In this document: positions 39,485 through 57,032 of the stretch, one piece after another
How the letters are laid out: every line of letters begins with the position of its first letter
How positions within the stretch are numbered: the first letter of the stretch is position 1
Assembly: GCA_030867685.1 (NCBI GenBank)
Contig: JAQOWU010000008.1
Span: 1,984,001-2,048,000 of the forward strand
Origin: Wickerhamiella versatilis
Lineage: Eukaryota
DNA: 64,000 bases
Reading direction: 5' to 3'
Translations under genes and position numbers: made by a program
The notes under the pieces: generated by a model
Told to the model about the DNA's origin: nothing
Database searches by the model: none
What the model saw: the letters and a program-made list of their open reading frames with translations, nothing else

Positions 39485-40558
39485 TTATCTCAAGTAGGGG
39501 AATAGTTCAGTGACCGTTCTCGTCAGATACTCCTCAGTATCAACGGCGAATCTTGTCACATCACCCTCCTCATAAGATCCAGCAGCTTGCAATCTCTTTC
39601 GTTGCATACGAAATCGGTCTTCCAGAATCTTCAATCTGTATTCCAGCCACTGATACCCAAGAACCTTCATATCTGATACCGCGGATGCGTTTCCAAGATG
39701 AGTACAGTCGTGAACGAAAGGATCGCGAGGCCGCAAGCTTGTCACCATTGCAATACGCTCGGAGCAATTACGTGCCCTGAGGGCCGCGTGTTTAATTCTT
39801 GAACCCTGCAGAAGTACTACTCTACCCATTGCTGGACCTGGGACAACAGCAGTACTTCCATCTTTCTTCATGACAGCCGTCTCACCTCCCTCCATACCTG
39901 TTGTATCTGAGACCATCAGAACAGCTACAAAGGGCACATAATCGTAATGCCAATCATCAACAGGACGGCTGTCGTACACACTAGGAGGGGTACGTTCCGA
40001 TGCCGCAAGAGGGAGGGTCGGTACATCAGACAGGTCTTTGACACCTTCCTTTCCTTTGGGTCCTAGCTGGATATTCGTATGTGCAATTTCATAGTCACAA
40101 ACTGGGACCAATTCAATACCGGCGGCCTTTGAAATTGCCTCCAAGACCTTTGGATTTTTCCAGGCATCATAGATAAACTTTGACTGAGTCGGTGCGAATC
40201 CCCGGACAACATAAGGCGCACGCTCCGAGCCATAGACATGGTTTTTTTGCACAGGTTCTGATAAAAGATCATTGCGCATCAGCCGAACTGCTTCATCTGT
40301 AAATAATCTGAAAGGCGCTACTGCTGCAATCTCGCTAATACCATCCTTAGCGTTATCGTAGCCGAAATCGCTTAATCTCAGTTTCCATTCTGGTTCTTCA
40401 ATAGCAAGATGTGTTTCAGGGTCAAATTCTACCTTGGTTGGCATATATTTCCATTTCTTTTCTGGGATTCCATAGGATACCTGAGGAGAGAGCTCCACAG
40501 AAGGCTCAAACAGTTGTTCAGGGAGGGGTGCTGCTTGCTGGGCTGTTGCCGAAGCCAT
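39485..40558 (-). CDS. Fe(II)/2-oxoglutarate dioxygenase-fold protein, function unknown
   Basis: WHYD (HxD), GGET, distal KH and ERIAMVTS (2OG-binding Arg) in DSBH order. Confidence 0.8.
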   Translation of the reverse strand: MASATAQQAAPLPEQLFEPSVELSPQVSYGIPEKKWKYMPTKVEFDPETHLAIEEPEWKLRLSDFGYDNAKDGISEIAAVAPFRLFTDEAVRLMRNDLLSEPVQKNHVYGSERAPYVVRGFAPTQSKFIYDAWKNPKVLEAISKAAGIELVPVCDYEIAHTNIQLGPKGKEGVKDLSDVPTLPLAASERTPPSVYDSRPVDDWHYDYVPFVAVLMVSDTTGMEGGETAVMKKDGSTAVVPGPAMGRVVLLQGSRIKHAALRARNCSERIAMVTSLRPRDPFVHDCTHLGNASAVSDMKVLGYQWLEYRLKILEDRFRMQRKRLQAAGSYEEGDVTRFAVDTEEYLTRTVTELFPYLR

Positions 40559-40643
40559 TGGTACTCAAATTCGACTTAGACTCGACTCAAAACCAGCGTG
40601 GGACTCCTTGCTTAAATATAATTCTCTGAAATTCGGTAACTGC

Positions 40644-40706
40644 CGGTTTTTGATAACAAACATTGCTGGCTGATAAGATTGATCAGCGGGACGGACCGGT
40701 TTTCGA
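40644..40706 (-). promoter_or_regulatory. Two TCRRANNCCG sites plus GATAAG upstream of the dioxygenase
   Basis: CGGTTTTTGA at 40644-40653, CGGTTTTCGA at 40697-40706 and GATAAG at 40672-40677. Confidence 0.65.
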
Positions 40707-41321
40707 ATCAGCGCGCATTAAATTCCTCATCTCAGGACAGATCAAGATGGCTAAGCCCATGGATACTTATATTACTTACTTCAATGCTATTTTCATAGAA
40801 TTTGTTTTTCTCATTTCATTTTTTTCGTATTCTCTACTGATCGATCTTGTGGAATGCCACACGGGTCTGGGTTAGGGTAAAGCATCAGTTGTGCTTCCAT
40901 TCAAAAGGCGACCGATCCCTATGTGCCAATCTAGTATAGTATAGTAATTCCAAACTGGAAACGCTCCTAGCATGTATTTTTCAGCTTCAATTAAAGAGGT
41001 TGTTGTTTCTAATTAAATAGAATACACTCCAGAACATTAATAGGGGATTTCGAACAAGTAGTCGGCAGTCGGGTATAGAACAGGGGGTACCACTTGCCTG
41101 TCGATAGCACCAATTCGTTCCGTAGAAAAAAAAATACATATTCTTACTTCATTTATATGTTTCCCTGTGACACTGAGAGGACTAGAAGAGGAAATTCAGT
41201 GATCGATCTAGTGCGTTTCCATCCAATAACCACGAACCACATTGTCTTGTGTTTGTTCAGATGATCAAAGAGTCCGTCATTTGTCAACGAGTTCTATTCG
41301 TATTTATATACTATATATGCA

Positions 41322-43316
41322 TTATATGCCAAAGTCCTGATCCAATGCTGTAGCCTGGGTTGGTGGTGTTGCATCGTCCCAGTTTGCCAGAATATTTTCA
41401 TGGAGCAGAAAATTCCATATACTATCACCGTTGTTCATATCAGGTGGATCAAAAAGTCCAAAAGGATCAGGTGCTCTTTGGCTGGGTTGGACATTGGCTA
41501 GAGTTACAGGTGAAGAGTATGTGTGTCCAGCCATTACATGCGGATTTTGAGGCCATTTTTCAAGATGTGGGGATTCCGGATGCATATTGCTTTTTCGCCT
41601 ATCTCGCTTCATGAACCGTTGGCATATCAGCTCTAGAGGCTTTGAGTATATATGCTGATCTTCTGGCGGTAGCTGAGCCATGGTTTGGGAAGCCTTATAT
41701 AGGATACTGACAATATCCTGCTGCTTCTGTCGGTTGGCATAAACACCCTTTGTCAACAAGGTCTTAGCCAAAAAGACCGATGCATGAAGCAATCTCGTAA
41801 TCCATTGAATTGGCGAGAATCTTAAGTCAACAGGAATATCGTCTGCTGATTCGTGTTGAATAATAAATACTGCTGCTTTTATTGCCATATTTAGGAATTC
41901 GCGGGATTCCTCAAAATGTAGCAATTTGTCTACAGATTTTTCCTGCCATGACATCAGAACCACCGAAAAGACGTATAGCTGAAAATGTCGGAATTCGAAC
42001 ATAGTGGTACGGTCTGACCAGGCAGTACCCTCGACAATATCACTATAGTCCGATTCCCACTTTTTAACAAGTTCATGGACAAGGGTTAATATTGTAATAT
42101 GGTGGCCAGAGGATACAAGCCTCTGAGTCTCCGTGCGTGATCGATATAGAGATCGGTTAGCCAAATGCAGTAGCTTCACAATGTCTAGACGCGCTCTATC
42201 AGATAAACTGCATTGTCGAATAGCAGATTCAGGAAATTCTTCCTCTGCTCCATGCAGCTGGTCAAGCATAGGCTGCTGACCGAGTCTGCAGGCTAGGAGG
42301 TGATCAGAGAAATGCAGAGCTATAGTAGTTTGAATATCATTCTTTAAAAGGCCTGTATAGCGGGCAATACGTACTGCTTGTCCCATTAACGGCCAGCAAA
42401 TTCTGGTGTGCCTCCTTAAAGCCTCACCAGGAGAGGAGTTATTTTCTAGTAAGGTACCAGGGAACCACTCGCACAAAGTAAGGACCCCAAAGATTAGAGA
42501 TCTTACGTTGCACTGAGGACATTCCCACATCAACTCACTAACCGTTCTTTGACAGTACTTCCACAACTTTTCCTGTAAATTCCTATTATCGTTCACGTCG
42601 AGGCACCGCGCACCTACAGTACAAACCACAGACAGGAGCGCAGGCTCAGCAGCTATTCTCGCAAGCTCTTGATATTCTGAAGGAATATAGGATGCGTAAA
42701 ACGGTGCGATTTCAGCAAAGAAGAATCCAACCAACCTGCACACTTCTTCCGTGGAAAGAATTCCATCGGCAACTATAGCCGAATCATGAACTGGTATTCT
42801 TTGCGTTGATAGCAAAGTGTTATTTGAATTTTCAATAGAAATAGCTCGTTTTTTTGACCTGGGTTCCACTTGCCTATAATCAAAACCTGTAGCTATTGTC
42901 TTACTCGGGATTCCTCTTTTTCTCTCAGACGACGCTTGATGTAGAATCTCAATCGCATCATTTGGCGTGTACATCTCATTTTTCAAAACAGTGCTTTCTG
43001 TTATAGGTGACATTGGTCTTGACTGTGGGGCAGTTCCCTCTGCGAGACGCAATCTATCAGCAGCTTCCCGTTCCCGCTTCTCTTTTCCGGCTAAAACATT
43101 GCCATAACCACCCCTTTTGTCAATATCAGGAATTTCACATATCAAGTCTTCTTCACGGCATCTCCGGCACGGTGCTTTGTCGCCGTCAAAATCGCACCTT
43201 GTCTTACGCTTTCTACAACTCAAACAGGCTTTTCGTGCTCTCTTTCTACGATGAAACTCATCATTTTCTTCCGATGTGCCCATAGACGCATATACTGGAG
43301 ATTCATACTCATTCAT
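41322..43316 (-). CDS. Zn(II)2Cys6 transcription factor (Aro80-like architecture)
   Basis: RARKACLSCRKRKTRCD..PCRRCREEDLIC followed by a middle homology region (LTLCEW, CWPLMGQAVR). First ATG at 43316. Confidence 0.92.
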   Translation of the reverse strand: MNEYESPVYASMGTSEENDEFHRRKRARKACLSCRKRKTRCDFDGDKAPCRRCREEDLICEIPDIDKRGGYGNVLAGKEKREREAADRLRLAEGTAPQSRPMSPITESTVLKNEMYTPNDAIEILHQASSERKRGIPSKTIATGFDYRQVEPRSKKRAISIENSNNTLLSTQRIPVHDSAIVADGILSTEEVCRLVGFFFAEIAPFYASYIPSEYQELARIAAEPALLSVVCTVGARCLDVNDNRNLQEKLWKYCQRTVSELMWECPQCNVRSLIFGVLTLCEWFPGTLLENNSSPGEALRRHTRICWPLMGQAVRIARYTGLLKNDIQTTIALHFSDHLLACRLGQQPMLDQLHGAEEEFPESAIRQCSLSDRARLDIVKLLHLANRSLYRSRTETQRLVSSGHHITILTLVHELVKKWESDYSDIVEGTAWSDRTTMFEFRHFQLYVFSVVLMSWQEKSVDKLLHFEESREFLNMAIKAAVFIIQHESADDIPVDLRFSPIQWITRLLHASVFLAKTLLTKGVYANRQKQQDIVSILYKASQTMAQLPPEDQHIYSKPLELICQRFMKRDRRKSNMHPESPHLEKWPQNPHVMAGHTYSSPVTLANVQPSQRAPDPFGLFDPPDMNNGDSIWNFLLHENILANWDDATPPTQATALDQDFGI

Positions 43317-43530
43317 CAATGTTTGAATCTTCTTAGGAGATAACACGATATTCCATTAGTAATTGCATCGGCTTTCCATTGGCCGGGACTTGGAGATAGA
43401 ACATGATCATCATGTAAGATGATTAAGAATTTTTCCTAAAGCCACTTTCCAATGACTGCTATTACATTGGATGTAAATATATTGCTTTTAGTCTATGGAA
43501 AATAAGTTTGTATTATTTCTGTTGTAAAAT

Positions 43531-44922
43531 CTACGCATCCTCCTTGTTAGACCTCTCTTTTGGCGAATGAGTCGAGACCCCAATTAATCCCTCTAATGAA
43601 ATATCACCAAGATTTTCTTCCATTATCACAGAATCATAACCAGCCAATTCCTCCTCCTTAGTTATTCTTAAACGTAGACCAGGAATCCAATTCATTAGCA
43701 ACAAGATAACTACCGTCATAACAAACGACCAAGCAGCTATGGAAACACAACCCGCAAGATTATATCCAAGCTGCACCCAGTGTCCGTCAATCCAGCCACC
43801 ATCTACTTCTGTAGCCCCGTCAAGCTTAGCCACCCAGTCTGCTCCAAATAAAGCAGTACAGATTCCTCCAACGAAACCCCCAATTCCATGGAGATTGAAC
43901 ACCTCAAGACCTTCATCAATGCCCACGAGCCGTGCAAAGCCGTCAGTAAGATTGCAGATTAGTGCAGTAACAATACCAATAACGATAGCAAAGTAGAAAG
44001 GTACAAAACCTGCTGCTGGGGTAATACCGACAAGTCCTGCAATGACTCCTTCACATGCAGCAATTATGGACCACCGGTGTCCATTACGCAAGTAGTGGAC
44101 TATTGAGTAAGTGAGCAAGCCAGATGAAGCAGCAAGATTGGTATTACAGAAGGCATAAGTTGAACGGACAGTGTCATTCAGAGCAGTCCCAGAATTGAAA
44201 AATAACCACCCGAAATATATCAATGAAGTCCCCATAAATACAAGTAACACATTGTGTGGGCGTACCTTAGGAATCATATTTTTTCCGGTGCCATCCTCGT
44301 TATGTCTTGGCCCAAGTACTAATGCATAGGCCAACGCTCCAAAGCCGGAGGCAATATGAACTGGAGAACCCCCAGCAAAATCCATGGTGCCCAGCTTGTA
44401 AAGCCACCCGTTCGCATTCCAGGTCCAATATGCCGCAAAATCGTAGACTATTATTGACCATATGCAAGCAAAAATAATGCTAGGGATAACCCTTGCTCTC
44501 TCGTTTCCACCACCGATCATGATACAGACAGTGGCGACACAAAAGTAGCATTGAAAAATCGAATAGACAGGTTCATTAAGCTCCCCAACAGAAGGGTCAA
44601 CACTAGTTTTTACGCTTTTCATTCCTCCATTCCCAAGGGTGCCAATCATTGAATTCCCAGTAACCGAGCTTACAAGAGAGTATCCTAGCAAATACCAGAT
44701 GATACTGACAGCACCCCATACAAAAAAGTTCATGAAAAGAAGCGAAATTGCACTTCTCTTTCTTGAAAGTCCTGCGTATAGTAACGCAATTCCCGGCAAG
44801 ATCAGCCACACACAACCGGTACCAACCTGAATATATACATCACTTGGACCATTGTACTGAGTATTCACATCAGTAACCATGGGGTTTGGCCCACTTGGGT
44901 TACTGGGGTCATACGTAGACAT
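43531..44922 (-). CDS. Amt/Mep ammonium (methylammonium) permease
   Basis: PGIALLYAGL, DFAGGSPVH, GWLFFN, GLVGITPAAGFV and VFNLHGIGG with both pore histidines retained. First ATG at 44922. Confidence 0.95.
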   Translation of the reverse strand: MSTYDPSNPSGPNPMVTDVNTQYNGPSDVYIQVGTGCVWLILPGIALLYAGLSRKRSAISLLFMNFFVWGAVSIIWYLLGYSLVSSVTGNSMIGTLGNGGMKSVKTSVDPSVGELNEPVYSIFQCYFCVATVCIMIGGGNERARVIPSIIFACIWSIIVYDFAAYWTWNANGWLYKLGTMDFAGGSPVHIASGFGALAYALVLGPRHNEDGTGKNMIPKVRPHNVLLVFMGTSLIYFGWLFFNSGTALNDTVRSTYAFCNTNLAASSGLLTYSIVHYLRNGHRWSIIAACEGVIAGLVGITPAAGFVPFYFAIVIGIVTALICNLTDGFARLVGIDEGLEVFNLHGIGGFVGGICTALFGADWVAKLDGATEVDGGWIDGHWVQLGYNLAGCVSIAAWSFVMTVVILLLMNWIPGLRLRITKEEELAGYDSVIMEENLGDISLEGLIGVSTHSPKERSNKEDA

Positions 44923-45287
44923 CTCCACGTGAGTAGGATTAGGTCATCTCAAGTTTGCAGAAATGAATATATATATATATATTAGAGGTAAGGGTTTTGA
45001 GTTGAAGCGATAAGAGATGCAACTTTGGAAGGCCTGTAAAAGGGTCGTAGTGGACTTTAGGACAATACTGGACTTTGAAGCGAATTAAAGAATTCACATA
45101 ATTTTCGTGTGTAAGATGTAGGTGAGTTCTGCGAGACAGATTGCTAGCCAATTTTTTTTTCATGAATACAGTTTCTTTTTTTCAATTGTGAGGTTTTTGA
45201 CAAAGCGTAGCACGTCCTACGGGTCTGGTTCTATACGATAATCAAAGTATAAGATATCGACAAAGTACATGGAGCAATGATACTCAG

Positions 45288-45503
45288 CGGGATTCGATTT
45301 GTCAGACACGGGGGGGACCGTGCATCGATAACAAGGTGTCTTTTTTTTTGATTTTTTTACACATGAAATCAGAGGAATATTACCAAGACACCATAAAAAA
45401 AATTCCATTTTCTTCGTCTTCTGCGCGATTTCGCATTTGAAGCGGCCTATACTTTTCAATAATTATTATTATAATCTTCAGGGCTTATCGTCTTCGAACA
45501 CCG
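45288..45503. promoter_or_regulatory. TCRRANNCCG sites plus GATA in the divergent Mep/EutQ promoter
   Basis: CGGGATTCGA at 45288-45297, TCGAACACCG at 45494-45503, near-match TCAGACACGG at 45302-45311 and CTTATC at 45484-45489. Confidence 0.6.
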
Positions 45504-45586
45504 ACTGTACTGCTTCGGCGGTAAGGGTTATAATTTCGTCGGGCATATAAGTTTGGCCAGTTACATTTATTTTGTTACCTTCAAAA

Positions 45587-45946
45587 ATGCCGATGAAATA
45601 CAAGCCTTCTGCTGAGGGAGCAGCTGTTAAGCCTCCTCAGATCCCCTCTCCTGGTAACAACTCCTTCTTGGGTGATATTTTTACCTCTGATGCACCTAAA
45701 GACAAGCAGATATCCTGTGGTTTCTTCAAACAGGAGAAAGGAGAACCATTGGTCTACACTTATGACTACGATGAGATGAAGGTATTTCTAGAGGTCGAGG
45801 GTGAGTACACACTCTCAGACGAAACCGGTTACAAGGTAAAGGTATCTCCTGGTGATGTTTTCTACTTCAACAATGGAAGTACCATTACTTTCGAGACCAC
45901 TGGATATGGTCTCGCATTCTTTACTGGGTTGCGCCCTACTATGTAG
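45587..45946 (+). CDS. EutQ-like cupin
   Basis: ISCGFF..EKG..LVYTYDYDEMK..EGE..SDETG..PGDVFYF..GSTITF, the EutQ/cupin_3 pattern. Confidence 0.85.
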   Translation: MPMKYKPSAEGAAVKPPQIPSPGNNSFLGDIFTSDAPKDKQISCGFFKQEKGEPLVYTYDYDEMKVFLEVEGEYTLSDETGYKVKVSPGDVFYFNNGSTITFETTGYGLAFFTGLRPTM

Positions 45947-46210
45947 ACTTTATCACATGATAGCCTGAGATATAAAACTATATAGAGCGGATAGTATTAA
46001 TATTCAACTCTTAGAATTTTTGTTATGAGCAGAGTTCTTAAATTCCCTAAATTTGAAATGTGATGGTTGAATTACAGAAGTTCCTTGGCTATGCTGAGAT
46101 TCCCCAGGATTCGCTAAGTTCTCATGGTTACATTAATACTATATAGGTAGACTGCCAGGTATCTTTTGTTATCGAGGCAGATTTTGTTTCTTTATGATAA
46201 TAATAATAAT

Positions 46211-47281
46211 CTATGAGCGCAAGTAAGCTAGCACAGGAGCGCCCCATATATGGCGTCCTTTATACTGTGCTGTGTCTTCAGGCCACGCTTCGAGAGCATC
46301 AGCACAAGTGTTACCCAATCCTTCCCGCTTCAGCTCTGCTAAAGAGTACATATATGTGCGGATGGAGAACCCCAAAAATCCTGTAACTGGAAGCCGGAAG
46401 AGTACTTGCCGCTCCAAACGTACAAATACAGAATTCTCAAAATCCAAATTTTTTACGTCAATTTCTCCATCAAATGAAAAATTACCAGAGGAATATAGAT
46501 CATTAACCTCTCCTAGCATGACACCGAAAGTCACTCTTTGCGTAAATGGCCCCGGCACAATGCGATGGAAGTAACGGTTCATAGATTTCTGGAGTCTTTC
46601 CTTATACTGAGGAACGGGTATGTGGATGTCGGTCAACTTTAGTCCCACCTTTTCGCGCCATTCGAAGCCAAGACCAGCAAGTCCAGAGCTAGCCTGTAAA
46701 CGGTACTCTTCAACACTTGGGTCATATTCGAGCACCATAATGTCTTCCTCAAGATTCACAGCGAGGATACGGAGAAGATCACGGGGATCAGAATTTTTTT
46801 CAGAGTAACGTGGCAGCTTACCACCTGTAATGGTATTGATTATCATATTTCCCTCTGGTTCAAAATATTTTGGATATCGTTGAGTGAGTGTATCCATAGC
46901 AAAGTCATACATTTCTTGGACAGCTTCAGTAGTTCTATAAGTACCATTGACCATGCAGGTAGTATCAGGATGCTCATTCATAATACGTCTATGATTTGCC
47001 ATGGCCTGTAAATAGACGCTATCAATTTTCAACCAGTCCTGACGCTTGGAGCGTGTCACGTTCATCGTAACGTGATAAGTAGATTTAAAAGGGCGATATT
47101 TGTCGGGGTCTTCAGTACTCCAATCGAAGCCTGGGGGTACTGGTTCGATTTTACCCCAATCAGTCTTGGACTGAAACCGCGACTTATTTCCTCCAGAAAT
47201 GAAGCGATTCCAAAGCGCAATGACTACAATGAATAGAACTACAAGGATGCCCACAAGATATGGGGACATGGAGAAAGTCAT
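46211..47281 (-). CDS. DUF3445 / heme-dependent oxidative N-demethylase alpha-subunit-like protein, N-terminal membrane anchor (paralog 1)
   Basis: TM segment (YLVGILVVLFIVVIALW), YRPFK..HVTM, LEEDIMVL, KVGLKLTDIHIPVPQY and VRLERQVLFRLP.TG...FSIRTY. Confidence 0.88.
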   Translation of the reverse strand: MTFSMSPYLVGILVVLFIVVIALWNRFISGGNKSRFQSKTDWGKIEPVPPGFDWSTEDPDKYRPFKSTYHVTMNVTRSKRQDWLKIDSVYLQAMANHRRIMNEHPDTTCMVNGTYRTTEAVQEMYDFAMDTLTQRYPKYFEPEGNMIINTITGGKLPRYSEKNSDPRDLLRILAVNLEEDIMVLEYDPSVEEYRLQASSGLAGLGFEWREKVGLKLTDIHIPVPQYKERLQKSMNRYFHRIVPGPFTQRVTFGVMLGEVNDLYSSGNFSFDGEIDVKNLDFENSVFVRLERQVLFRLPVTGFLGFSIRTYMYSLAELKREGLGNTCADALEAWPEDTAQYKGRHIWGAPVLAYLRS

Positions 47282-47358
47282 CTCTGTTTTCTCCCGTCTG
47301 TGCGAGAGAATTTTATCAGCAAAGGGTCTGTTTATAGATATGACCGGGTTTATTACAT

Positions 47359-47625
47359 GCGTTGTCAGCCAAATCCCGACGAAATGTCGAACCCCGCGTT
47401 GTCAGCATGCGTATCGTCAAACACCGAAACAAGGTACTTTGATGAAACAGTTTCTACGCAAATAGACAGTTCAAATGAGATTTGTGGTTTTAGAGAAGGA
47501 TAATATGACTTAATTTGGAGAAATAATAGAAATACAGAGTGGATGGATCACGCTATCCAAAGGCATGATAGATGAACGCCTCCGTGGTTGGGGAGATAAC
47601 TAATCTGCGATAAGGTCAAAAGCCG
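47359..47625. promoter_or_regulatory. Bidirectional promoter of the DUF3445 pair: three TCRRANNCCG sites, an 11-bp direct repeat and GATA sites
   Basis: TCGAACCCCG 47387-47396, TCAAACACCG 47417-47426, TCAAAAGCCG 47616-47625; GCGTTGTCAGC at 47359 and 47396; GATAAG 47609-47614. Confidence 0.65.
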
Positions 47626-47676
47626 GGTGAGTTATATACAGACCTAGTTTCCGATGGTGTGTGTTGTGTTTGCGCA

Positions 47677-48789
47677 ATGGACAAATTCCTTTCTGGATTG
47701 CCGATACCAGCTTTGACGGCACACATAGGGTCGGTGTGGGCCTCGATTTTGTTAGTGCTAATTTTCGGGGCTGTTGGCTTGCTACTGGTTTCATACTCTT
47801 TCTCTAAGAAGAAGACATATGCACCAAAAGTTGATGCTGTATCGAAAGACTATGACTGGCGTACGAGAGTGCCAGAAAATTTCCGCCCAATGAAGCCTGT
47901 ATATCACATGGTTATGAATGTTGGCAAAATATCACCTGATAACTGGCTCTACATCGATAGCGACTACGAGTGGGTGACGAGTGTCCACTCAAAAATCTTG
48001 GATGAGCACCCAAATGATACTTGTAAAGCAAATGCCTCTGCGGAAACATCTAGAGCAATTGAGGAGCTTTATGATTTAGTATTTGGCGTACTAGTACAAC
48101 AGTACCCGCAATATTTTGTTGTAAAGGGCAAAACAATCATTAATACAATACTGAATACGAGGATTCCACGCTATGGATCGGGAAGTAAGCTTTCCTCAGA
48201 GGAACTACTACGTGTTCTTATGAAGAATACGGAGGAGGATTTCCAATTACTGCAGCATGACCCAGTTTCAGACGAGTTTGTTGTCAGGGGAATTGGTGGT
48301 CTAACTTCTGATGGCTATAGTTGGAAGAAAAAACTCAACAGAAAATTGACTGACGTTCATACTCCTGTTCCAGGCTATAAGGAAAAACTCAAGAATTCTA
48401 TGAACAAGTTCTTCAAAAAGCTCCAGCCCGGTCTTTTTATTCAACGGTTCACCTGGGGTATACATATAGGCTCCTGTGAACAAATTTACTACCCAGTAAG
48501 AGACCATGTAGGGTCTGGTGAAGGAGGGAAATTCAAAGAATCAGATATCGATTTCGAGAAGGGGGCCTGGCTACGTGTAGAACGTCAAGTACCTACTAAG
48601 CTACCGAAAAGTGGATTCCTCATTTTAACGCAGCATACATTCTGGTATCCATTAAAGGACCTCAAGAATGAAGGTATTGGTGACTTGACAGCAACAAGTA
48701 TAGAGGCATGGCCAGACGTCTTTGCTGAGTACAAAGGTAGACCAGATTGGGGAGAAGCTGTAAATTCCTGGCTGCGGAGAAAAGAATAA
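47677..48789 (+). CDS. DUF3445 / heme-dependent oxidative N-demethylase alpha-subunit-like protein, N-terminal membrane anchor (paralog 2)
   Basis: TM segment (WASILLVLIFGAVGLLLV), FRPMKPVYHMVM, TEEDFQLL, KLTDVHTPVPGY, QRFTW and LRVERQ..KLPKSG. First ATG at 47677. Confidence 0.88.
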   Translation: MDKFLSGLPIPALTAHIGSVWASILLVLIFGAVGLLLVSYSFSKKKTYAPKVDAVSKDYDWRTRVPENFRPMKPVYHMVMNVGKISPDNWLYIDSDYEWVTSVHSKILDEHPNDTCKANASAETSRAIEELYDLVFGVLVQQYPQYFVVKGKTIINTILNTRIPRYGSGSKLSSEELLRVLMKNTEEDFQLLQHDPVSDEFVVRGIGGLTSDGYSWKKKLNRKLTDVHTPVPGYKEKLKNSMNKFFKKLQPGLFIQRFTWGIHIGSCEQIYYPVRDHVGSGEGGKFKESDIDFEKGAWLRVERQVPTKLPKSGFLILTQHTFWYPLKDLKNEGIGDLTATSIEAWPDVFAEYKGRPDWGEAVNSWLRRKE

Positions 48790-49130
48790 AAAAATGTCTT
48801 TTTTTGCTAACTTGTAACTGCATGGCAGCCCGAGTAAATGTTTATTTAGTGTTCTTATGAATCTAAGCACGCGCATATTTAATGCCTTGTTCCTTTTTAT
48901 TTTTTTTGGTGGATTCACTCAGGTTTTGTCGCTTAGGAGTTCTAGTAGCTGACTGCTTCCTAATGGCTAGATTACGCATTTGTCTAACAAAACTTGTCAA
49001 ATAGGCTACTTTCGAGATGCGTCCAAGAACAAAAAAGGTAACAAAAAACAAGAGTACCACTTATAATTTGACTGCGATAGTCATGCAACTAGTAATATTT
49101 TATCTAGAAATAAGCTAAACAGAGTTCGGT

Positions 49131-51143
49131 TCATAGACGCTGCTCACCATGGCAGCTCTTCACTTCCACAGAGCGATTGAATTGTTGATTTGACGTAGGT
49201 ACGTCCATTGCTGGGTTTTCAGAGAAAAAGCCATAAGGATGAAGGCCGACAACAATTCGTTCCATGGGCATGATAGGAAAGTCTTCGATTCTGGGATAGT
49301 GCGTGAGACCAAAAGAGTGCCACAATACCACATCATCGTTACGCACATTTTCATTACGCTTAACCGCATCGGAACAGCCACCGGTTTCTTCTGCGCTTTG
49401 GTTTGTCCAATTTCCTCCGGCATAAAATTCCTGATCTTTGTGCTTCGTAACCCAGAAGTGATGTGTAGCGTATTTCGCACGCGAGCGAGCAACCGTACCC
49501 TCTGGGGCCATGAGAAGGGCTGACGGGAAAGGTGCAAGCTTATAACCAACAGGCTCCATAGTAATGGGATTGATCTTGTTCTCATTGACGATCTTAATGA
49601 AGCGGTTTTTAGACTGGTCACAATCAAGATACGAAGAGCGCTCGACATATGTAGGGTCATTGTAGAATCCAGTACCATATGGGTTTAGAGAATCCCGCGG
49701 TGGATGCTTGGTATCGCATACCACCACAGAATTAGAATGACCGTCAATAGCAGGGTCAACACGCATTGAGAAAACGTGCTGGTGGCCAGCAGCCAATACT
49801 GAAGGCGCTACAACAGTGCCCCACTTGCTTTTCTTACCAGGGTCAATGTATTGTGTAGAAATTACACCTGTTGCTCTAACCTCGAGTTCAACGCATCCTA
49901 CCTGGTCGAAGTGCCAGTTGAAAATGTATTCGTAGTTAGCGACAGTGATGACAGTTTGAAGGATCAAGATACGGCGTCTTACTACTCTGCCGACCCCAGT
50001 GCGGAAATTAGCATGCTTAAGAAGAATACCATCATCTTGTTCATGCATGCATACGACATTTTTGCGTTGCTCAACATTTCCGTCTGCATGGGTCAGGACA
50101 CCATCAAAATACTTGATAACACCGAGACAGTCGCAGCCAAGACCTAGAGAGTTGGCCGAGAATCCGGCACCGTAATCACCGAGATCAAATGCCTGTTTAC
50201 GGTGAAGTGGAGGACGAGGATCACTATAAGGCACAGTCATCTCGCTCACAGACAAACGATAGAAAAGCATCCGACCGTCATAACGTACATCACCAATAAC
50301 AAGCCCTTCGCGAGGATTGAACATCACACGGAAGCTCCACTTCTGCCAATTAACAAGACTGCCATCCACACTAAAAGATGGCCCATTTGGCTGAATCACA
50401 TTGTATGGCTGCAAGTCTGTACGCATTCCTGTTGATCGCAATTCAGGCATGTATTCAACTCCCTCGAAATCTTCGATAATGGAACCCTTACTATTACGAG
50501 TGTTATAGTTGATCTCCCCATTAGTGTCATCTCCCTCATTACCCGTTGCACACCAATCAATTCGCTCCAGTTTCTGCTCGAACGAGTCAACAACTGGCAC
50601 GAATGGTAATGGCAGAGCATAAATGTTTGATTCCTCATGTCTGTTTTTTGGATTGCGCATAAACATGAGGAACATAACATATCGTGGTTTTGTAACCTCC
50701 GAATCGCAGCCGTATACCCAAGGGTCAGCTGCCACCAAAGGAATCAAATCACCTGTTATGCCACACTGCTTGAGCGCATCAAGCACCTTTGGCTCCTTCA
50801 ACATCATTTGTTCGAGAGTTCCTCCCTCGATCATGTCTATCATAGCATGTTTTCCTACGGGGAAAGACTCCTGCTTGATAATAACCTGAGTGTCAAGGTT
50901 AATCCAAGCCTGCTCCGCACGCTTGTCCGATAAAATCAAGTAAACCGCATATGCAATACGCGGAGGCGGAGGGATCTTATGACCAGAATGCTCGGCATCG
51001 AGGTATTTCACCATGTATTTTTTGGGTGGTTCTTCGGTTTGAATTCCCTTGATGTGCAAAGCTTTACCACTGTTTGAATCTCTGAGAATCTTAACGGCAT
51101 TTTTGGCTTCCGCCACCGTAAGCTGGTCGAGGGGATGTACCAT
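49131..51143 (-). CDS. Copper amine oxidase (TPQ), methylamine-oxidase-like, probably peroxisomal
   Basis: HPLD, AFDLGDYG (catalytic Asp), TVANYEY (TPQ), HQH and THYP copper ligands, EDFPIMP; C-terminal QRL. Confidence 0.95.
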   Translation of the reverse strand: MVHPLDQLTVAEAKNAVKILRDSNSGKALHIKGIQTEEPPKKYMVKYLDAEHSGHKIPPPPRIAYAVYLILSDKRAEQAWINLDTQVIIKQESFPVGKHAMIDMIEGGTLEQMMLKEPKVLDALKQCGITGDLIPLVAADPWVYGCDSEVTKPRYVMFLMFMRNPKNRHEESNIYALPLPFVPVVDSFEQKLERIDWCATGNEGDDTNGEINYNTRNSKGSIIEDFEGVEYMPELRSTGMRTDLQPYNVIQPNGPSFSVDGSLVNWQKWSFRVMFNPREGLVIGDVRYDGRMLFYRLSVSEMTVPYSDPRPPLHRKQAFDLGDYGAGFSANSLGLGCDCLGVIKYFDGVLTHADGNVEQRKNVVCMHEQDDGILLKHANFRTGVGRVVRRRILILQTVITVANYEYIFNWHFDQVGCVELEVRATGVISTQYIDPGKKSKWGTVVAPSVLAAGHQHVFSMRVDPAIDGHSNSVVVCDTKHPPRDSLNPYGTGFYNDPTYVERSSYLDCDQSKNRFIKIVNENKINPITMEPVGYKLAPFPSALLMAPEGTVARSRAKYATHHFWVTKHKDQEFYAGGNWTNQSAEETGGCSDAVKRNENVRNDDVVLWHSFGLTHYPRIEDFPIMPMERIVVGLHPYGFFSENPAMDVPTSNQQFNRSVEVKSCHGEQRL

Positions 51144-51192
51144 GGCTAACTATTTGGTGCTTAGAAGCTTTAAATAGGGCGGGTTCCTATCT

Positions 51193-51278
51193 CTTATCAA
51201 CAGTTGTAAGCGGGAGTTGGCTGTCAGAAGCCGATCGGCTTCCGATAGGTGTTCGATCCATGTCCGGTGTCTGACAAA
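51193..51278. promoter_or_regulatory. Amine oxidase promoter: 16-bp palindrome, three TCRRANNCCG sites and GATA
   Basis: GAAGCCGATCGGCTTC at 51227-51242; motif sites at 51224-51233 (+), 51236-51245 (-) and 51265-51274 (-); CTTATC at 51193-51198. Confidence 0.7.
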
Positions 51279-51348
51279 CGATAAATCAATCAATCTCCTA
51301 ACCATACATTATATAAAACTGGCATTTTTAGTTTATTATCCGTACTTA

Positions 51349-52869
51349 CTACAACTTCGTAAACAAACCACTGCAAGCACCTTTTGTGTGCTGTATTAGG
51401 GTGCTCTTAGTTCTCAAGTAAGCCTTTATACCTTCTTCTCCATTTTCTAGGCCGATACCACTCATCTTCCAGCCCCCCACAGGCATCTCTGCAGGTGACT
51501 CACCCCATGTGTTGATCCAAGTAATCCCCGCTTCCAGTTTTTGGATGACCATAGTGGCCAATGCGGCATCTGAAGTTACAACCCCGGCCGCCAGACCCAT
51601 TGGTGTATCATTAGCTCGGGCAACAACTTTCTGAAGCCAATCATCACCATTTGTACTGTAGGGTAGGATGCACATTACCGGTCCAAATATTTCTTCACGT
51701 ACCACGCGCATGTTATCAGCACAGTTAGTGAATACAACCGGTGGCACCCAGAACCCACCAGATGTAGGCTGAACACTCTGAGCGTCAGCAGATCCATCGT
51801 AGAGAACTTTCGCCCTGTCAATATCGCGGCCATGGCGAATATACATCTTGACTTTAGCCTGATGCGCGGAGCTCACAACAGGTCCGAAGTTAGTATCTGC
51901 TTCTTGTGGCATTCCCATTCTAATACCACCTCTACAGCGGCTGATGATAGCTTCTTCAACAGGTCCAAGTAAAACATCAGGGACGAAAACTCTTGTTCCG
52001 TTGGTACACACCTGACCAGTGGAAAAAAAATTGGCAGCCATGGCTACATCTGCTGCTTCCTCTATGTCAGCGTCGGGCAGCACAACAAGAGGGCTCTTAC
52101 CACCTAATTCCATGGTAACCCCTTTCATACCACCCGCAGCGGAACTGGCGACCTTGCTGCCTGTGCTCACTTGTCCGGTGAAACTTACTTTTGCAATGCT
52201 GGGATGACTTACAAGAGGTGCCCCCACACTCATTCCATCACCGTAAACCACATTAAATACACCAGCTGGTACACCAGCTTCGATATATATCTCGGCAAGG
52301 GTGTTAGCATGAAGAGGTGTAACCTCACTTGGTTTATAGACCATACAGTTACCAGCTGCTAGACAAGGGGCAGATTTCCAAAGAGCGATTTGGATAGGAT
52401 AGTTCCAGGCACCGATGCCTGCGCAAACTCCTAGTGGCTCGTTGGTCGTGTATACTGATGCATCTTCCCTCAAACGGGTATATGATCCTGGGAGTCCACC
52501 AGCTACCTGATGGGCATAGTACTCTAAAACATCTGCTCCTGTGATAATATCCACGGTCGAGGTCTCGGAATATGGCTTTCCCGTGTCAAGTGTTTCGGTG
52601 AGTGCCAACTCATTATTGCGCTCACGAAGTATAGAAACGGCACGAAGCAATATTTCTGCTCGTTTAGAAGCTGGCGTATTGGACCATTGAGAGAATGCAG
52701 TCTGCGCAACTGATATGGTCTGCTCCAGCTCTGCGGGTGTTGTGGTGTAAACAGTTGCTAGAGGATTCCCGGTTGCTGGATCATAAGAGTGGAATTTCAC
52801 GGAAGAAGATGAAACTGGCCTCTGAGGCTTTCCCGAATGGAAAGTATAGATCTCAGAGGAGAACGTCAT
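51349..52869 (-). CDS. Betaine aldehyde dehydrogenase (BetB/ALDH9-like)
   Basis: GIGAWNYPIQIALWKSAPCLAAGN, KPSEVTPL, MELGGKSP, GQVCTNGTRVFV and WGESPAEMPVGG; C-terminal TKL. First ATG at 52869. Confidence 0.9.
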   Translation of the reverse strand: MTFSSEIYTFHSGKPQRPVSSSSVKFHSYDPATGNPLATVYTTTPAELEQTISVAQTAFSQWSNTPASKRAEILLRAVSILRERNNELALTETLDTGKPYSETSTVDIITGADVLEYYAHQVAGGLPGSYTRLREDASVYTTNEPLGVCAGIGAWNYPIQIALWKSAPCLAAGNCMVYKPSEVTPLHANTLAEIYIEAGVPAGVFNVVYGDGMSVGAPLVSHPSIAKVSFTGQVSTGSKVASSAAGGMKGVTMELGGKSPLVVLPDADIEEAADVAMAANFFSTGQVCTNGTRVFVPDVLLGPVEEAIISRCRGGIRMGMPQEADTNFGPVVSSAHQAKVKMYIRHGRDIDRAKVLYDGSADAQSVQPTSGGFWVPPVVFTNCADNMRVVREEIFGPVMCILPYSTNGDDWLQKVVARANDTPMGLAAGVVTSDAALATMVIQKLEAGITWINTWGESPAEMPVGGWKMSGIGLENGEEGIKAYLRTKSTLIQHTKGACSGLFTKL

Positions 52870-53269
52870 GGTCAAACAAAAATTCGAATTCCCGATTAGA
52901 AAGCGTTTACCGTAATAACGTAGATTGCTCGCGGCCCTTGCCCTTATCTTTCTTTTACAGGTTTCTCATCAAGTCATATTGGCTATTCGCCAAAAACTGA
53001 TTCGTGGCGTATATTTCCAGGCCAAGGAAAGGGGAGCAGTATTACCCGGCAAGAAATATCGACTGTGGTAAAGCCTCTTATTCACTGTTCATGTCATAGG
53101 AATTAAATGCGTTGATTCAAACATATGTAGTCGTATAAGCCCAAAGCTGGTGGTCAATAGCCAGCAAAGCTGTGACTTGTCCGTGCCCGATATCATTAAA
53201 ACCCGTCGAACCCTTACCCTTTATCGGTATATATTTTTCTGTGCGATACTCTCTAATCCTCCCAGAACT

Positions 53270-54889
53270 ATGACTACCGAGATTTTGCCTGAAAACGCTA
53301 GCTACGACTATATCATTGTTGGGGGAGGTACTGCTGGTTGCGTGATTGCCGAACGTTTATCTGCGTACCTGCCAGAACGCAAGATTCTTCTTATCGAAGC
53401 AGGGCCCTCTGACTTCCATATTGGCCAAGTTTTGCAACTCAGAGAGTGGCTTGGTCTGCTTGGAAGCGAGTACGACTATGATTATGGCACAGTTGAGCAG
53501 CCTTTTGGTAACAGCAACATCAGACACTCCAGAGCTAAGGTTTTGGGGGGCTGCTCGTCTCATAACACGTTGATCTCGTTCCGTCCGCTCAAGTATGACA
53601 TGGATAGGTGGGTCAAAGATGGATGCAAAGGTTGGGATTTCTCAACTGTAATGCGTCTCTGTGATAAGCTGCGTAACACCGTCCAGCCAGTTCACGCTCG
53701 TCATCGCAACCAGCTCTGTAAAGACTGGGTCCAATCTTGCTCGAGCGCTTTGGGAATCCCCATTCTGGATGACTTCAATGCAGGAATTAAGAAGTCCGGA
53801 AAACTTGAGGAAGGTGTTGGCTTTCTTTCGATCTCGTATAACCCTGATGATGGGAAGCGCAGCAGTGCCTCTGTCGCTTACATCCACCCTATCTTGAGAG
53901 GCGAGGAAAAACGACCTAATTTAACTGTGCTAACAGAGGCTTGGGTATCAAAACTTCACGTTGAGAATGATGTTGCTACGGGCATTGATGTGACACTTAA
54001 ATCAGGCCAGAAGCGCTTCTTGAAGCCCGGTAAGGAGATCGTTCTCTGCGCAGGTGCTATTGATACGCCTCGTCTGATGCTGCTTTCAGGCATTGGTCCT
54101 AAGGCCGAGCTTGAGAAGGTAGGAATTCCTGTTGTCAAGGACTTGCCAGGTGTAGGCGAAAATTTGCTTGATCATCCAGAGTCCATCATCATGTGGGAAC
54201 TAAGTAAACCGGTGCCCCCTAACCAGACTACGATGGATTCGGATGCTGCTATTTTCCTTCGCCGCGAGCCCACCAATGCGGCTGGTGCTGGTGACGGTGA
54301 TGCTGATATTATGATGCATTGTTACCAGATCCCGTTTACGCTCAACACTCAGCGGCTTGGCTACCCTGATGTACCAGATGGATATGCCTTTTGTATGACG
54401 CCTAATATTCCGCGTCCTCATTCCCGTGGTCGTCTATACCTTACCAGTTCGGATCCCAGTGTTAAGCCTGCTCTGGACTTCCGTTACTTCACTGACCCTG
54501 AGGGTTATGATGCAGCCACTCTTGTAGCCGGGATCAAGGCTGCTCGTAAGGTAGCTCAGCAAGCTCCTTTCCGTGACTGGATCAAGCAGGAGGTAGCTCC
54601 TGGTCCTAAAGTGCAAACCGACGAGGAAATCAGCGAATATGCTCGTCGTGCTCATCACACGGTATATCATCCAGCAGGAACTACTAAGATGGGTGACGTA
54701 TATCGCGATGAACTTGCTGTTGTGGATCCAGAACTTAAGGTTAAAGGCATCAAGAACCTGCGGATCGCAGATGCTGGTGTTTTCCCTGAAATGACCACAG
54801 TAAACCCCATGCTAACGGTTTTGTCCATTGGTGAGCGCGCTGCTGAGCTCATGGCGTCGAACGATTGGAGTCCAGATGCTCGTCTGTAG
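53270..54889 (+). CDS. Choline oxidase (CodA-type GMC flavoprotein), peroxisomal
   Basis: GGGTAG, HSRAKVLGGCSSHN (flavinylation His of Arthrobacter-type choline oxidase), DHPE, TVYHPAGT and TVNP; PTS1 ARL. First ATG at 53270. Confidence 0.92.
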   Translation: MTTEILPENASYDYIIVGGGTAGCVIAERLSAYLPERKILLIEAGPSDFHIGQVLQLREWLGLLGSEYDYDYGTVEQPFGNSNIRHSRAKVLGGCSSHNTLISFRPLKYDMDRWVKDGCKGWDFSTVMRLCDKLRNTVQPVHARHRNQLCKDWVQSCSSALGIPILDDFNAGIKKSGKLEEGVGFLSISYNPDDGKRSSASVAYIHPILRGEEKRPNLTVLTEAWVSKLHVENDVATGIDVTLKSGQKRFLKPGKEIVLCAGAIDTPRLMLLSGIGPKAELEKVGIPVVKDLPGVGENLLDHPESIIMWELSKPVPPNQTTMDSDAAIFLRREPTNAAGAGDGDADIMMHCYQIPFTLNTQRLGYPDVPDGYAFCMTPNIPRPHSRGRLYLTSSDPSVKPALDFRYFTDPEGYDAATLVAGIKAARKVAQQAPFRDWIKQEVAPGPKVQTDEEISEYARRAHHTVYHPAGTTKMGDVYRDELAVVDPELKVKGIKNLRIADAGVFPEMTTVNPMLTVLSIGERAAELMASNDWSPDARL

Positions 54890-55391
54890 ACTCTGATCTG
54901 GACATTCCTGTAAATTTAAATGGCTCCAGTAGTCTGACTATTTTAATTTTACAAACATTTTGAGTATTAAACAATAATTAAATCAAATGCAAAATTTAAT
55001 CTCAGGGGGTTGGTGCACCATATGTAAGATCCATTCCTAACGCTAAGGGCAGCGGTATGTAGTAATCCAATACGTCAACTCGAATACCAATCACAGGGTT
55101 GATCCACATATTACTAACATGACAAATTACTAATAATGATGGGTGAGAAATTTTTCATGGGGAGAGAAGTGAAATTTGCAAAGATGTTTAAATCTTCAGC
55201 CTTGTAATTTTTGCGTCGAGTTGTGCAGCTGGTGATTCGGGTGGGTTATAGTATTGGGGTCACCTATAAGCACCAGTTACATAATATCACCGGCATTATT
55301 AGCTTAGTTGTGACATAATATCCTTTTCAGCAGACATTACAGTATTTAAGCTCGCTGATGTACGCATCGAAAAGTTTTATTTCGGGTGAAA

Positions 55392-57032
55392 ATGACCGCA
55401 TTAAAGCAAGTGCCCAAGGAAACTGGCTATGGTAAAAAGAATGATTCTGAATCTGAATCAATTCTTTACGACAGGTTTCGGCGGAGTCAAGAATCCAGTG
55501 AGGGGTTATTGGCAGGTAACGAGCGTCTTGGTGAATTAGGGTACAAACCAGAGTTGAAAAGGGAATTCACGTACTTTTCTGCCTTCTCCTTCGCCGTGTC
55601 AGTCTCCGGTTTATTTGGCACTATAGCCACAACTTTTACTTATCCGCTCATGGCTGGTGATTCAGCGTGTGTGGTGTGGGCTTGGGCCATAGGTGGTGTG
55701 GGGTGTCTGTGTATAGCTTATTCTGTGGCTGAGCTTGTCAGTGCGTACCCAACCTCTGGTGGACTTTATTACGCATGCAGTAAAGTCTTCCCAAAGAAAT
55801 GGGCCCCGTTCATGTGTTGGGTGGATGGATGGGTGAATCTTCTTGGACAGATAGCAGGGGTTGCCTCAAGTGATTATGGTGCTGCACAAATCATTCTTGC
55901 TGCAGGACAAGTTGGAACGGATTTCAAGTACAACCCCACAACCAACCATGTAGTGGGTGTGATGGCTGGTATTCTAGTCGTGCAGGGCATGATAAGTTGT
56001 ATGCCAACTCGTTACATTGAAAAATTCACAAAATTCTACGTAGTATTTCATTTTGGTGCGTTGTTTGCGGGTGCAATAGCCTTACTGGCAAAGACTAAAC
56101 CGAAGTTCGACGCCTCATATGTGTTCACTCATGTGGAGCAACATAACAATTGGAACCCTCGTGGATTTTCGTTTCTTTTCGGATTCCTGAGCGTTGCTTG
56201 GACAATGACAGATTACGATGCCACTGCACATATCTGTGAGGAGATGTCTGATCCAGAGCGAAAAGCGCCTTGGGCCATTTCGATGGCAATGACTTTTACT
56301 TATGTTCTTGGCTTCCTGTATAACATTGTCCTTTGTTTTGCCATGAAATTGCCGGAATCACTTACCCAGGGTGAAGACTCAATTAAATACCTTCTAAACT
56401 CGGACCAGCCGGTAGTGATGATGTATATGTCACTTGGAAAAGGGGGAGCAGTTACATTCGCGGTGTTCATGTTTATTGTCATTAACTTCCTTGGCCTTAG
56501 TGCATTACAAGCAGCTAGCCGCACGATGTGGGCTCAAGCTCGCGATCATATGTACCCTGGCAGTTCTGCTCTTCTGTATCATGTTAACCGGCTGACAAAG
56601 ACCCCGGTGAACTGTGTGGTGTTCTGTACTATCCTCTGCATTGCAATAAATTTAATTGCATTGGGAAGTCAGGAGACTATCACTGCAATTTTCAATGTGG
56701 CCGCTATTGCTCTCGATTGGTCCTATTGCTGGCCTATCATGGGAAAAATGATGTTCCCTAATTTATTCAAGCCTGGTCCTTGGCACTTAGGTCCAGCCTC
56801 ATTTTTTATAAACTTCTATGCTGTTGCGTGGACAAGTTTCGTAACTATTATTTTCTTTTTCCCCACAGAAAGGCCTGTTACGAAAAATAATATGAACTAC
56901 GCTGTAGTATTTTTTGTGTTTATTATTACGGCATCAGTCGTATGTTGGTTCTCTGGTGGATCCAAGGTTTACAAAGGTCCCTCAGCAACTGCGCCTAAGG
57001 AAGAGGATGAAGTTCGCGGTAAGACCGATTAA
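55392..57032 (+). CDS. APC-superfamily ACT permease (HNM1/UGA4/TPO5-like; choline/amine/GABA)
   Basis: LGYKPELKREF, AELVSAYPTSGGLY, WTMTDYDATAHICEE, PGPWHLG and NMNYA. Confidence 0.88.
   Translation: MTALKQVPKETGYGKKNDSESESILYDRFRRSQESSEGLLAGNERLGELGYKPELKREFTYFSAFSFAVSVSGLFGTIATTFTYPLMAGDSACVVWAWAIGGVGCLCIAYSVAELVSAYPTSGGLYYACSKVFPKKWAPFMCWVDGWVNLLGQIAGVASSDYGAAQIILAAGQVGTDFKYNPTTNHVVGVMAGILVVQGMISCMPTRYIEKFTKFYVVFHFGALFAGAIALLAKTKPKFDASYVFTHVEQHNNWNPRGFSFLFGFLSVAWTMTDYDATAHICEEMSDPERKAPWAISMAMTFTYVLGFLYNIVLCFAMKLPESLTQGEDSIKYLLNSDQPVVMMYMSLGKGGAVTFAVFMFIVINFLGLSALQAASRTMWAQARDHMYPGSSALLYHVNRLTKTPVNCVVFCTILCIAINLIALGSQETITAIFNVAAIALDWSYCWPIMGKMMFPNLFKPGPWHLGPASFFINFYAVAWTSFVTIIFFFPTERPVTKNNMNYAVVFFVFIITASVVCWFSGGSKVYKGPSATAPKEEDEVRGKTD

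Follow-up and report, generated by a model that had tools for sequence, protein, structure and literature searches.

TCRRANNCCG, a ten-base promoter element marking a candidate methylated-amine regulon within and beyond a gene cluster of the yeast Wickerhamiella versatilis

The DNA analysed here, referred to below as the window, comprises 64,000 nucleotides of contig JAQOWU010000008.1 (positions 1,984,001 to 2,048,000) from the compact, intron-poor genome of the yeast Wickerhamiella versatilis, a stretch that occurs mostly in food-fermentation samples. It holds a gene cluster, four promoter regions of which contain repeats of the ten-base word TCRRANNCCG, the subject of this report. In order, the cluster encodes a putative Fe(II)/2-oxoglutarate dioxygenase of 357 amino acids (39485..40558, minus strand), an Aro80-like Zn2Cys6 regulator of 664 amino acids (41322..43316, minus strand), a Mep/Amt ammonium transporter of 463 amino acids (43531..44922, minus strand), an EutQ-like cupin of 125 amino acids (45569..45946, plus strand), two haem-dependent oxidative N-demethylase alpha-like proteins of family PF11927 (formerly DUF3445), here called a (356 amino acids; 46211..47281, minus strand) and b (370 amino acids; 47677..48789, plus strand), a copper amine oxidase of 670 amino acids (49131..51143, minus strand), and, at 51349..57032 on mixed strands, an aldehyde dehydrogenase, a GMC oxidase and an amine/amino-acid permease. 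Family and genomic context would make the aldehyde dehydrogenase and the GMC oxidase a betaine aldehyde dehydrogenase and a choline oxidase, respectively. The window dioxygenase gave no Pfam or NCBIfam match; its homologs carry the name 'Fe2OG dioxygenase domain', and the residues H203-x-D206...H257 are invariant. We treat the dioxygenase, the cupin, demethylase-like genes a and b and the amine oxidase as candidate targets of a factor that recognizes the element, for which the Aro80-like regulator is the leading candidate.

All ten matches to TCRRANNCCG that an earlier note had listed from the sequence are present, position and strand alike. Two lie on the minus strand upstream of the dioxygenase, at 40644..40653 (TCAAAAACCG, site 1, 85 bp from the ATG and overlapping a GATAA) and 40697..40706 (TCGAAAACCG, site 2, 138 bp from the ATG). 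The divergent region between Mep and the cupin gene holds a minus-strand site at 45288..45297 (TCGAATCCCG), 365 bp from the Mep ATG and ~270 bp from the cupin ATG, and a plus-strand site at 45494..45503 (TCGAACACCG), 65 bp upstream of the cupin ATG with a GATAAG just upstream on the opposite strand. Three plus-strand sites accompany the demethylase-like genes, two of them upstream of gene a, at 47387..47396 (TCGAACCCCG, 105 bp) and 47417..47426 (TCAAACACCG, 135 bp), and one 51 bp upstream of gene b, at 47616..47625 (TCAAAAGCCG), adjoining a GATAAG. The amine oxidase is preceded by an inverted pair on both strands at 51224..51245 (TCAGAAGCCG / TCGGAAGCCG), which has a central CCG-N2-CGG and lies 80-92 bp upstream of the ATG, and by a minus-strand site at 51265..51274 (TCAGACACCG), 121 bp upstream.

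Across the window, 18 exact matches were found, compared to an average of 5.2 and a maximum of 10 in 100 shuffles; four of the eight matches beyond the ten listed sites fall inside open reading frames of the cluster (40123, 41541, 41989 and 51564). The ten sites are concentrated in four of the 11 intergenic regions that span 38210 to 57659 (two in 763 bp, two in 646 bp, three in 395 bp and three in 205 bp), while the remaining seven regions contain none. The four regions, put at about 2 kb in the earlier note, together measure 2,009 bp, and its estimate of 0.25 expected hits is close to the 0.18 obtained from the genome rate (882 matches in 9.88 Mb on eight contigs), against ten observed. The same note had cautioned that a motif derived post hoc overstates significance. 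As a control for this, every motif of the same shape (a 5-mer with two two-fold degenerate positions, separated by a gap of 0-8 from a CCG on either side) was enumerated in 300 dinucleotide shuffles of the four regions. The best count was 3 in 20 shuffles, 4 in 214, 5 in 62 and 6 in four, such that none reached the real count of ten.

The shape of the element is strict. A spacer of two bases gives 10 matches in the window promoters and nine in the promoters of the test genes described below, compared to zero or one for other spacers; in the test promoters, spacers of 0, 1, 3, 4 and 5 gave none. With CCG as the last triplet, 19 matches were observed in the training and test promoters combined, against 0.76 expected, the runner-up triplet giving four, and relaxing any single specified position added 0-5 matches against 0-2 expected. 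Alternative spacers and alternative last triplets were therefore rejected, as they stay at background level. A longer consensus was rejected as well, since the 23 promoter sites tabulated have no conserved base on either side, indicating that the ten-base word is the whole element. Sites occur in both orientations, mostly 20-140 bp upstream of the ATG. GATAA lies within 60 bp of 16 of the 23 sites, and its density is about three-fold higher in site-bearing promoters than in background promoters (7.5 versus 2.65 per kb). TCRRANNCCG is very probably a functional cis-element.

CCG/CGG triplets are the recognition half-site of Zn2Cys6 regulators, and TCRRANNCCG, which reads CGG-NN-TYYGA on the reverse strand, has both the invariant CGG/CCG triplet and the fixed spacing to a second element that mark such sites. 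In this it resembles the Gal4 site (CGG-N11-CCG), where the spacing between a CGG/CCG half-site and its partner element is likewise constant and orientation is immaterial. The left half of the element reads CRR and is a complete CGG in only three of the 23 sites, and no single spacing dominates that would define a dyad of two full CGG half-sites. Other Zn2Cys6 sites include CGG-N6-CCG for Ppr1 and UaY, CGG-N6-CGG for Hap1 and TCGG-N2-CGA for Stb4, as well as the monomer-type sites of Rgt1 and AlcR. We know of no Zn2Cys6 site equal to CGG-NN-TYYGA, although no motif database was searched.

Because demethylation releases formaldehyde, unlinked formaldehyde-removal genes and paralogs of the cluster enzymes were chosen as a test set. 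Promoters were defined throughout as the 300 bp upstream of the ATG, and the background consisted of 120 genes, taken from the first 38 kb of the window and from 19 stretches of 10 kb placed at even intervals. The element is present in seven of 11 pathway-related promoters compared to four of 120 background promoters (Fisher p = 8.7e-7). A single site was found upstream of SFA1 at -75 (TIGR02818 above cut-off), FGH1 at -36 (TIGR02821) and formate dehydrogenase (FDH) at -238 (NF005750). The other positives are three dioxygenase paralogs outside the window, with sites at -44, -82 and -265 in the copy on C1 and at -27 and -60 in the other two, and one of the four other PF11927 genes (C7, site at -111). 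In all four dioxygenase paralogs found, a site precedes the ATG by less than 90 bp; no genome-wide search for more paralogs was made. Their promoters have no longer sequence in common, and the window and C1 proteins are 58% identical. The region that contains the SFA1 site is also shared with a divergent second gene of the zinc alcohol-dehydrogenase family (C3, ~1207k).

Three pattern searches for two sites no more than 200 bp apart returned 26 loci in the genome, 22 of which were examined. Thirteen are wholly coding and were dismissed (C1:928k, 805k and 423k; C3:243k, 275k, 592k, 942k and 1214k; C7:1013k; C8:618k, 1059k, 1219k and 3186k), and three have one coding site and lie at a demethylase-like gene, an aldo-keto reductase and an unknown protein. 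At the other six loci both sites are non-coding; four of these are the window regions, and the remaining two precede the C1 dioxygenase and a permease that shares 65% identity with the window permease. The four loci that were not examined (C7:2608k, C8:1352k, 1790k and 4498k) resemble coding repeats. With sites at SFA1, FGH1, FDH and paralogs of the dioxygenase, demethylase-like and permease genes elsewhere, the element is not cluster-specific, as it had originally been described; the regulon is genome-wide.

Inside the cluster, TCRRANNCCG is missing from the divergent dehydrogenase/oxidase promoter, the permease promoter and the promoter of the window regulator. None of the listed samples that contain the stretch is recorded as RNA, and expression was followed in two raw RNA runs that bear the same species label and have unspecified growth conditions (X21 and X24), together with X18, which is RNA by guess, bears another organism label and is 2-3% diverged. 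In X21 and X24, values were 0-0.4x for the dioxygenase, 0-3x for the demethylase-like genes, 2-12x for the cupin and, raised by reads from its paralog, 4-16x for the amine oxidase, while three genes without the motif (aldehyde dehydrogenase, GMC oxidase and permease) reached 24-333x; the window regulator was transcribed at 7-16x. The order in X18 is the reverse, with contig depths of 328 for the dioxygenase, 179 for the cupin and demethylase-like gene a, 107 for a merged contig from demethylase-like gene b through the oxidase, 49 for the regulator and Mep, and 29 for the permease. The X18 contigs end at 40550, 45594, 47355 and 47638, and seven sites fall in the uncovered upstream gaps.

Because contig depth is a poor gauge of expression, this pattern is suggestive only, but it suggests that expression of the motif-bearing enzyme genes changes in concert and separately from that of the choline arm, and that Mep is under its own drive. 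Since the promoters of the choline arm lack the site and its expression is independent, the cluster consists of two regulatory units, the choline-to-betaine arm being under separate regulation. Mep is the weakest member of the regulon, as its one site lies 365 bp upstream and is shared with the cupin gene, and it is on while the others are off. The proposal that the cluster genes form a regulon is thus borne out insofar as a CCG element marks a co-regulated set, defined by its distribution among promoters and by joint near-silence in two RNA runs; the set is wider than the cluster and, within the cluster, narrower. Template-switch adaptor loose ends in run X24 also place the Mep transcript start at 44940, 18 bp upstream of the ATG.

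The genome encodes seven full-length Aro80-like Zn2Cys6 paralogs, four of which are near dioxygenase genes, either adjacent (the window and C1), divergent (C8:4407k) or ~7 kb away (C8:216k). These four form one clade (support 0.978; FastTree, 36 proteins, 540 columns), and in the same tree the seven paralogs form a clade of their own (0.962) that is sister to an Aro80-like clade (0.632). The family name Aro80-like is a provisional one that comes from an atlas label: the window regulator aligns along its full length, Zn cluster and regulatory region alike, with P0064 (hhalign probability 100, E 3.9e-44, 542 columns, 24% identity), whose nearest atlas cluster bears the automatic name ARO80 (score 0.98). 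Solved structures gave at best weak matches to Put3. The search of the genome gave no closer Aro80-like gene, and a candidate for a separate canonical ARO80 gene at C7:1542553 was rejected, as it aligns in the Zn cluster only. Judged by matching lengths of the longest contig (289993, 8444, 86585 and 77811), homologs of the regulator and of the dioxygenase probably occur together in four other assemblies, which suggests a conserved pair.

Given that four paralogs of a single clade are near dioxygenase genes, the binder probably belongs to this subfamily, and we consider it likely that the element is read by Aro80-like proteins. The earlier note had assigned the element to the factor encoded at 41322-43316. 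This copy remains the leading candidate, but only that, because all seven paralogs have similar DNA-binding domains and linkers and four of them are near motif-bearing dioxygenase genes. The Zn clusters and linkers are alike, the cysteine spacing to the RGG linker being identical in six, so that sequence cannot single out the binder; our preference for the window copy as a main binder is accordingly slight. In this assembly, the C8:216k regulator is missing 18 residues, including cysteines 3 and 4 of the Zn cluster, and the near-identical P0007 is intact, which would fit either a real loss or an assembly error. That regulator stands in a looser second module at C8:215k-228k, composed of the regulator paralog, an RTA1-like gene, a permease, a dioxygenase paralog and a convergent PF11927 pair, in which only the dioxygenase has a site. 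The dioxygenase paralog at C8 ~4406k, which diverges from a regulator paralog that is intact, has a frameshift close to its 5' end in the assembly. The most divergent regulator paralog (C3:183k-191k) lies beside two N-methyltryptophan/sarcosine-oxidase-like genes, one of them above the NF008425 cut-off, and no TCRRANNCCG was found there.

The closest described system is that of Saccharomyces cerevisiae Aro80, which binds CCG-N7-CCG repeats (WWNCCGANRNWNNCCGNRRNNW) beside GATA sites, acts with Gln3/Gat1 and controls ARO9, ARO10, ARO80 and ESBP6 (PMC1829477, PMC7947893). The two systems have in common a homologous regulator family, a CCG-based site with adjoining GATA, a secondary nitrogen source, and enzymes and permeases as targets. 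They differ in that the element described here combines one CCG with a TCRRA that precedes it by two bases, instead of CCG-N7-CCG repeats, its targets are genes for amine de-alkylation and formaldehyde oxidation, and the regulator family is expanded to seven paralogs. CCG-N7-CCG was rejected as the true site, as it occurs twice against 1.3 expected, and in a strain run (X16) a substitution at 40635 destroys one of these two occurrences; none of the 40 X16 substitutions listed falls inside site 1 or 2. The ARO8/9-like promoter examined and the fungal-type ARO10-like promoter contain neither CCG-N7-CCG nor TCRRANNCCG, and TCRRANNCCG lies upstream of one of two more distant decarboxylase paralogs. 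Two of the three decarboxylase-like genes share 54% identity and are 31% identical to the third; this pair may be of bacterial type. Four CGG direct repeats with 4-bp spacers, located ~120-150 bp upstream of the decarboxylase-like open reading frame at C7:241099, are a candidate site for another Zn2Cys6 factor.

The presumed target pathway also has counterparts. Methylamine or choline induces FLD, FGH and FDH in other yeasts, and the methylotrophic yeasts (Komagataella, Ogataea and Candida boidinii) have the same three formaldehyde-oxidation genes (there FLD1, FGH1 and FDH1) and a methylated-nitrogen route separate from methanol induction, for which the accessible portion of the source names neither a cis-element nor a regulator (PMC1781073). 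In Scheffersomyces stipitis, the pathway comprises CMO1, AMO1, AMO2, SFA1 and FGH1, SFA1 being essential and FGH1 important on methylated amines, and the yeast di- and trimethylamine demethylases are described as unidentified and possibly non-cytochrome P450 haem enzymes of the endoplasmic reticulum (PMC5816127). The amine oxidase and SFA1/FGH1 core is the same as in W. versatilis, where, unlike in S. stipitis, the genes stand in a cluster that also encodes a regulator, a dioxygenase and PF11927 proteins; the accessible text of that study holds no promoter or regulator analysis ('promoter', 'regulat' and 'transcription factor' each occur zero times). Bacterial dimethylamine monooxygenase also releases formaldehyde, and DUF3445 is not mentioned in the accessible part of that report (PMC5520151). 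In the literature searched, we found no regulator or cis-element for the amine induction of formaldehyde genes, and no published report of the TCRRANNCCG motif or its regulator was found in a search that left out subscription papers and supplements.

Based on the data presented above, we consider it fairly probable that a lineage-specific Zn2Cys6 subfamily derived from Aro80 governs a regulon for methylated-amine nitrogen and uses TCRRANNCCG as its upstream activating site. Within the site, the Zn cluster would contact CCG, with the fixed-distance TCRRA serving as a degenerate second half-site or a flank contact, and the site would be active in either orientation, often alongside GATAA. On poor nitrogen, signalled through GATA activators, a methylated amine would act as the ligand that licenses the DNA-bound regulator, for which the copy at 41322-43316 is the likeliest candidate, acting by itself or together with paralogs. 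The regulator would then turn on uptake through permease paralogs, de-alkylation by the dioxygenases, haem N-demethylase-like proteins and copper amine oxidase, recapture of ammonium by Mep, and removal of the released formaldehyde by SFA1, FGH1 and FDH. In this scheme we infer protein binding, the identity of the paralog, activation over repression, the inducer and the enzyme substrates; for the inducer, a methylated amine seems the probable choice over formaldehyde.

Several observations weigh against this reading. Four of the 11 predicted promoters, those of a second amine oxidase and of three of the four other demethylase-like genes, lack the site, and the count of seven falls to five of nine without the C1 dioxygenase, which was located via the motif, and the C7 demethylase-like gene, whose promoter also emerged from the pair search. 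The model does not explain the site at one of three pyruvate/phenylpyruvate-decarboxylase-like genes, or those upstream of the aldo-keto reductase and the unknown protein; the background rate is ~3%. Mep stood at 32-181x in X21 and X24 while the enzyme genes were off, and the RNA evidence as a whole is limited by unspecified growth conditions, the differently labelled organism of X18 and the poor gauge that depth provides. Any of the seven paralogs could bind TCRRANNCCG, and the promoter of the window regulator has no site, in contrast with two paralogs that have one upstream. Finally, 80 metagenome loci of dioxygenase homologs were collected, 30 of which were dropped as duplicates or for having less than 300 bp upstream; among the 50 distant fungal loci that remained, three had a site (0.087 per kb versus 0.129 in the rest), and none had cluster neighbours save for one weak Zn-cluster match. 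Pan-fungal conservation is thus rejected, and with the motif at background in distant fungi the link appears to be lineage-specific.

An alternative that keeps the element and the regulon, and that we regard as unlikely but worth entertaining, is that binding falls mainly to a different paralog, such as the C1 or C8:4407k copy, or is shared among several paralogs or performed by a heterodimer, with each paralog responding to its own amine and the window copy one contributor or none. The equal Cys-to-RGG-linker spacing in six of the seven paralogs, the three sites beside the dioxygenase of the C1 copy and the upstream sites of two paralogs would all agree with this, and an asymmetric site would fit a heterodimer. 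However, the densest sites, ten of the 23 tabulated, surround the window copy, which is transcribed in both RNA runs, while in this assembly the C8:216k copy lacks two of its six cysteines and the C8:4406k dioxygenase is frameshifted. It is less probable still that an unrelated Zn2Cys6 factor responds to formaldehyde or S-hydroxymethyl-glutathione, the linkage of Aro80-like and dioxygenase genes being incidental. All three formaldehyde-oxidation genes do bear the site, the site is unlike the known CCG-N7-CCG of Aro80, and the genome has many other Zn2Cys6 genes; yet permease and ammonium-transporter promoters, which detoxification would not need, are marked too, and all four dioxygenase-plus-regulator modules found have a site.

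The remaining explanations dispense with a dedicated regulator. The GATAA enrichment in the same promoters and the proximity of sites to the start codon would be expected of a general nitrogen-starvation or core-promoter element, but this idea is largely refuted and in our estimate very improbable, as the site is rare in background promoters and missing from the ARO8/9-like promoter, and none of the three ammonium-transporter genes outside the window bears it, on which ground a general nitrogen catabolite repression element was rejected. Lowest of all, with scarcely any probability, we place chance with post-hoc fitting, or promoter carry-over by gene duplication. The motif was indeed derived from these promoters and the outside set consists partly of paralogs; against this stand the post-hoc-corrected shuffles, the strict spacer, the sites at the non-paralogous SFA1, FGH1 and FDH, and the lack of alignable flanks between paralogous promoters.

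If a methylated-amine regulon read by the Aro80-derived subfamily is the correct interpretation, TCRRANNCCG points to an undescribed on-switch for methylated amines as a nitrogen source and narrows the candidate regulators to a small paralog clade. It also yields a short candidate list for the demethylation steps, namely three demethylase-like genes, of which two lie in the window, four dioxygenases, the cupin and permeases, tied to SFA1, FGH1 and FDH. Expression analysis has been proposed as a means of finding the missing demethylases (PMC5816127), for which the motif supplies testable targets. Moreover, a physically clustered pathway divides into two regulatory units, and the element may be of use in a food-fermentation yeast as a compact promoter part or biosensor, probably inducible by amines. 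What is new is the site, the regulator subfamily and the membership of the regulon; the combination of Zn2Cys6 and GATA sites is an ordinary architecture. More tentatively, and with rather less confidence than in the regulon itself, it is possible that an Aro80-derived subfamily was redirected from aromatic amino acids towards methylated amines via a new asymmetric site and is the unnamed amine-sensing switch of the yeast formaldehyde-dissimilation genes, that PF11927 haem proteins and orphan Fe(II)/2-oxoglutarate dioxygenases are the missing di-/trimethylamine (or quaternary-amine) de-alkylating enzymes, and that the duplicated regulator-dioxygenase-permease modules are each tuned to a different amine, with one shared detoxification output.

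Two further features were noted. Downstream of the window dioxygenase, 38210-39484 is a 1.3-kb gap free of open reading frames that contains nine GATAA words and no TCRRANNCCG, and the X18 dioxygenase contig extends into it as far as 39017. At C1:802k-805k, entE-, entA- and entH-like genes are tightly packed, resembling the bacterial enterobactin operon of Wickerhamiella/Starmerella yeasts.

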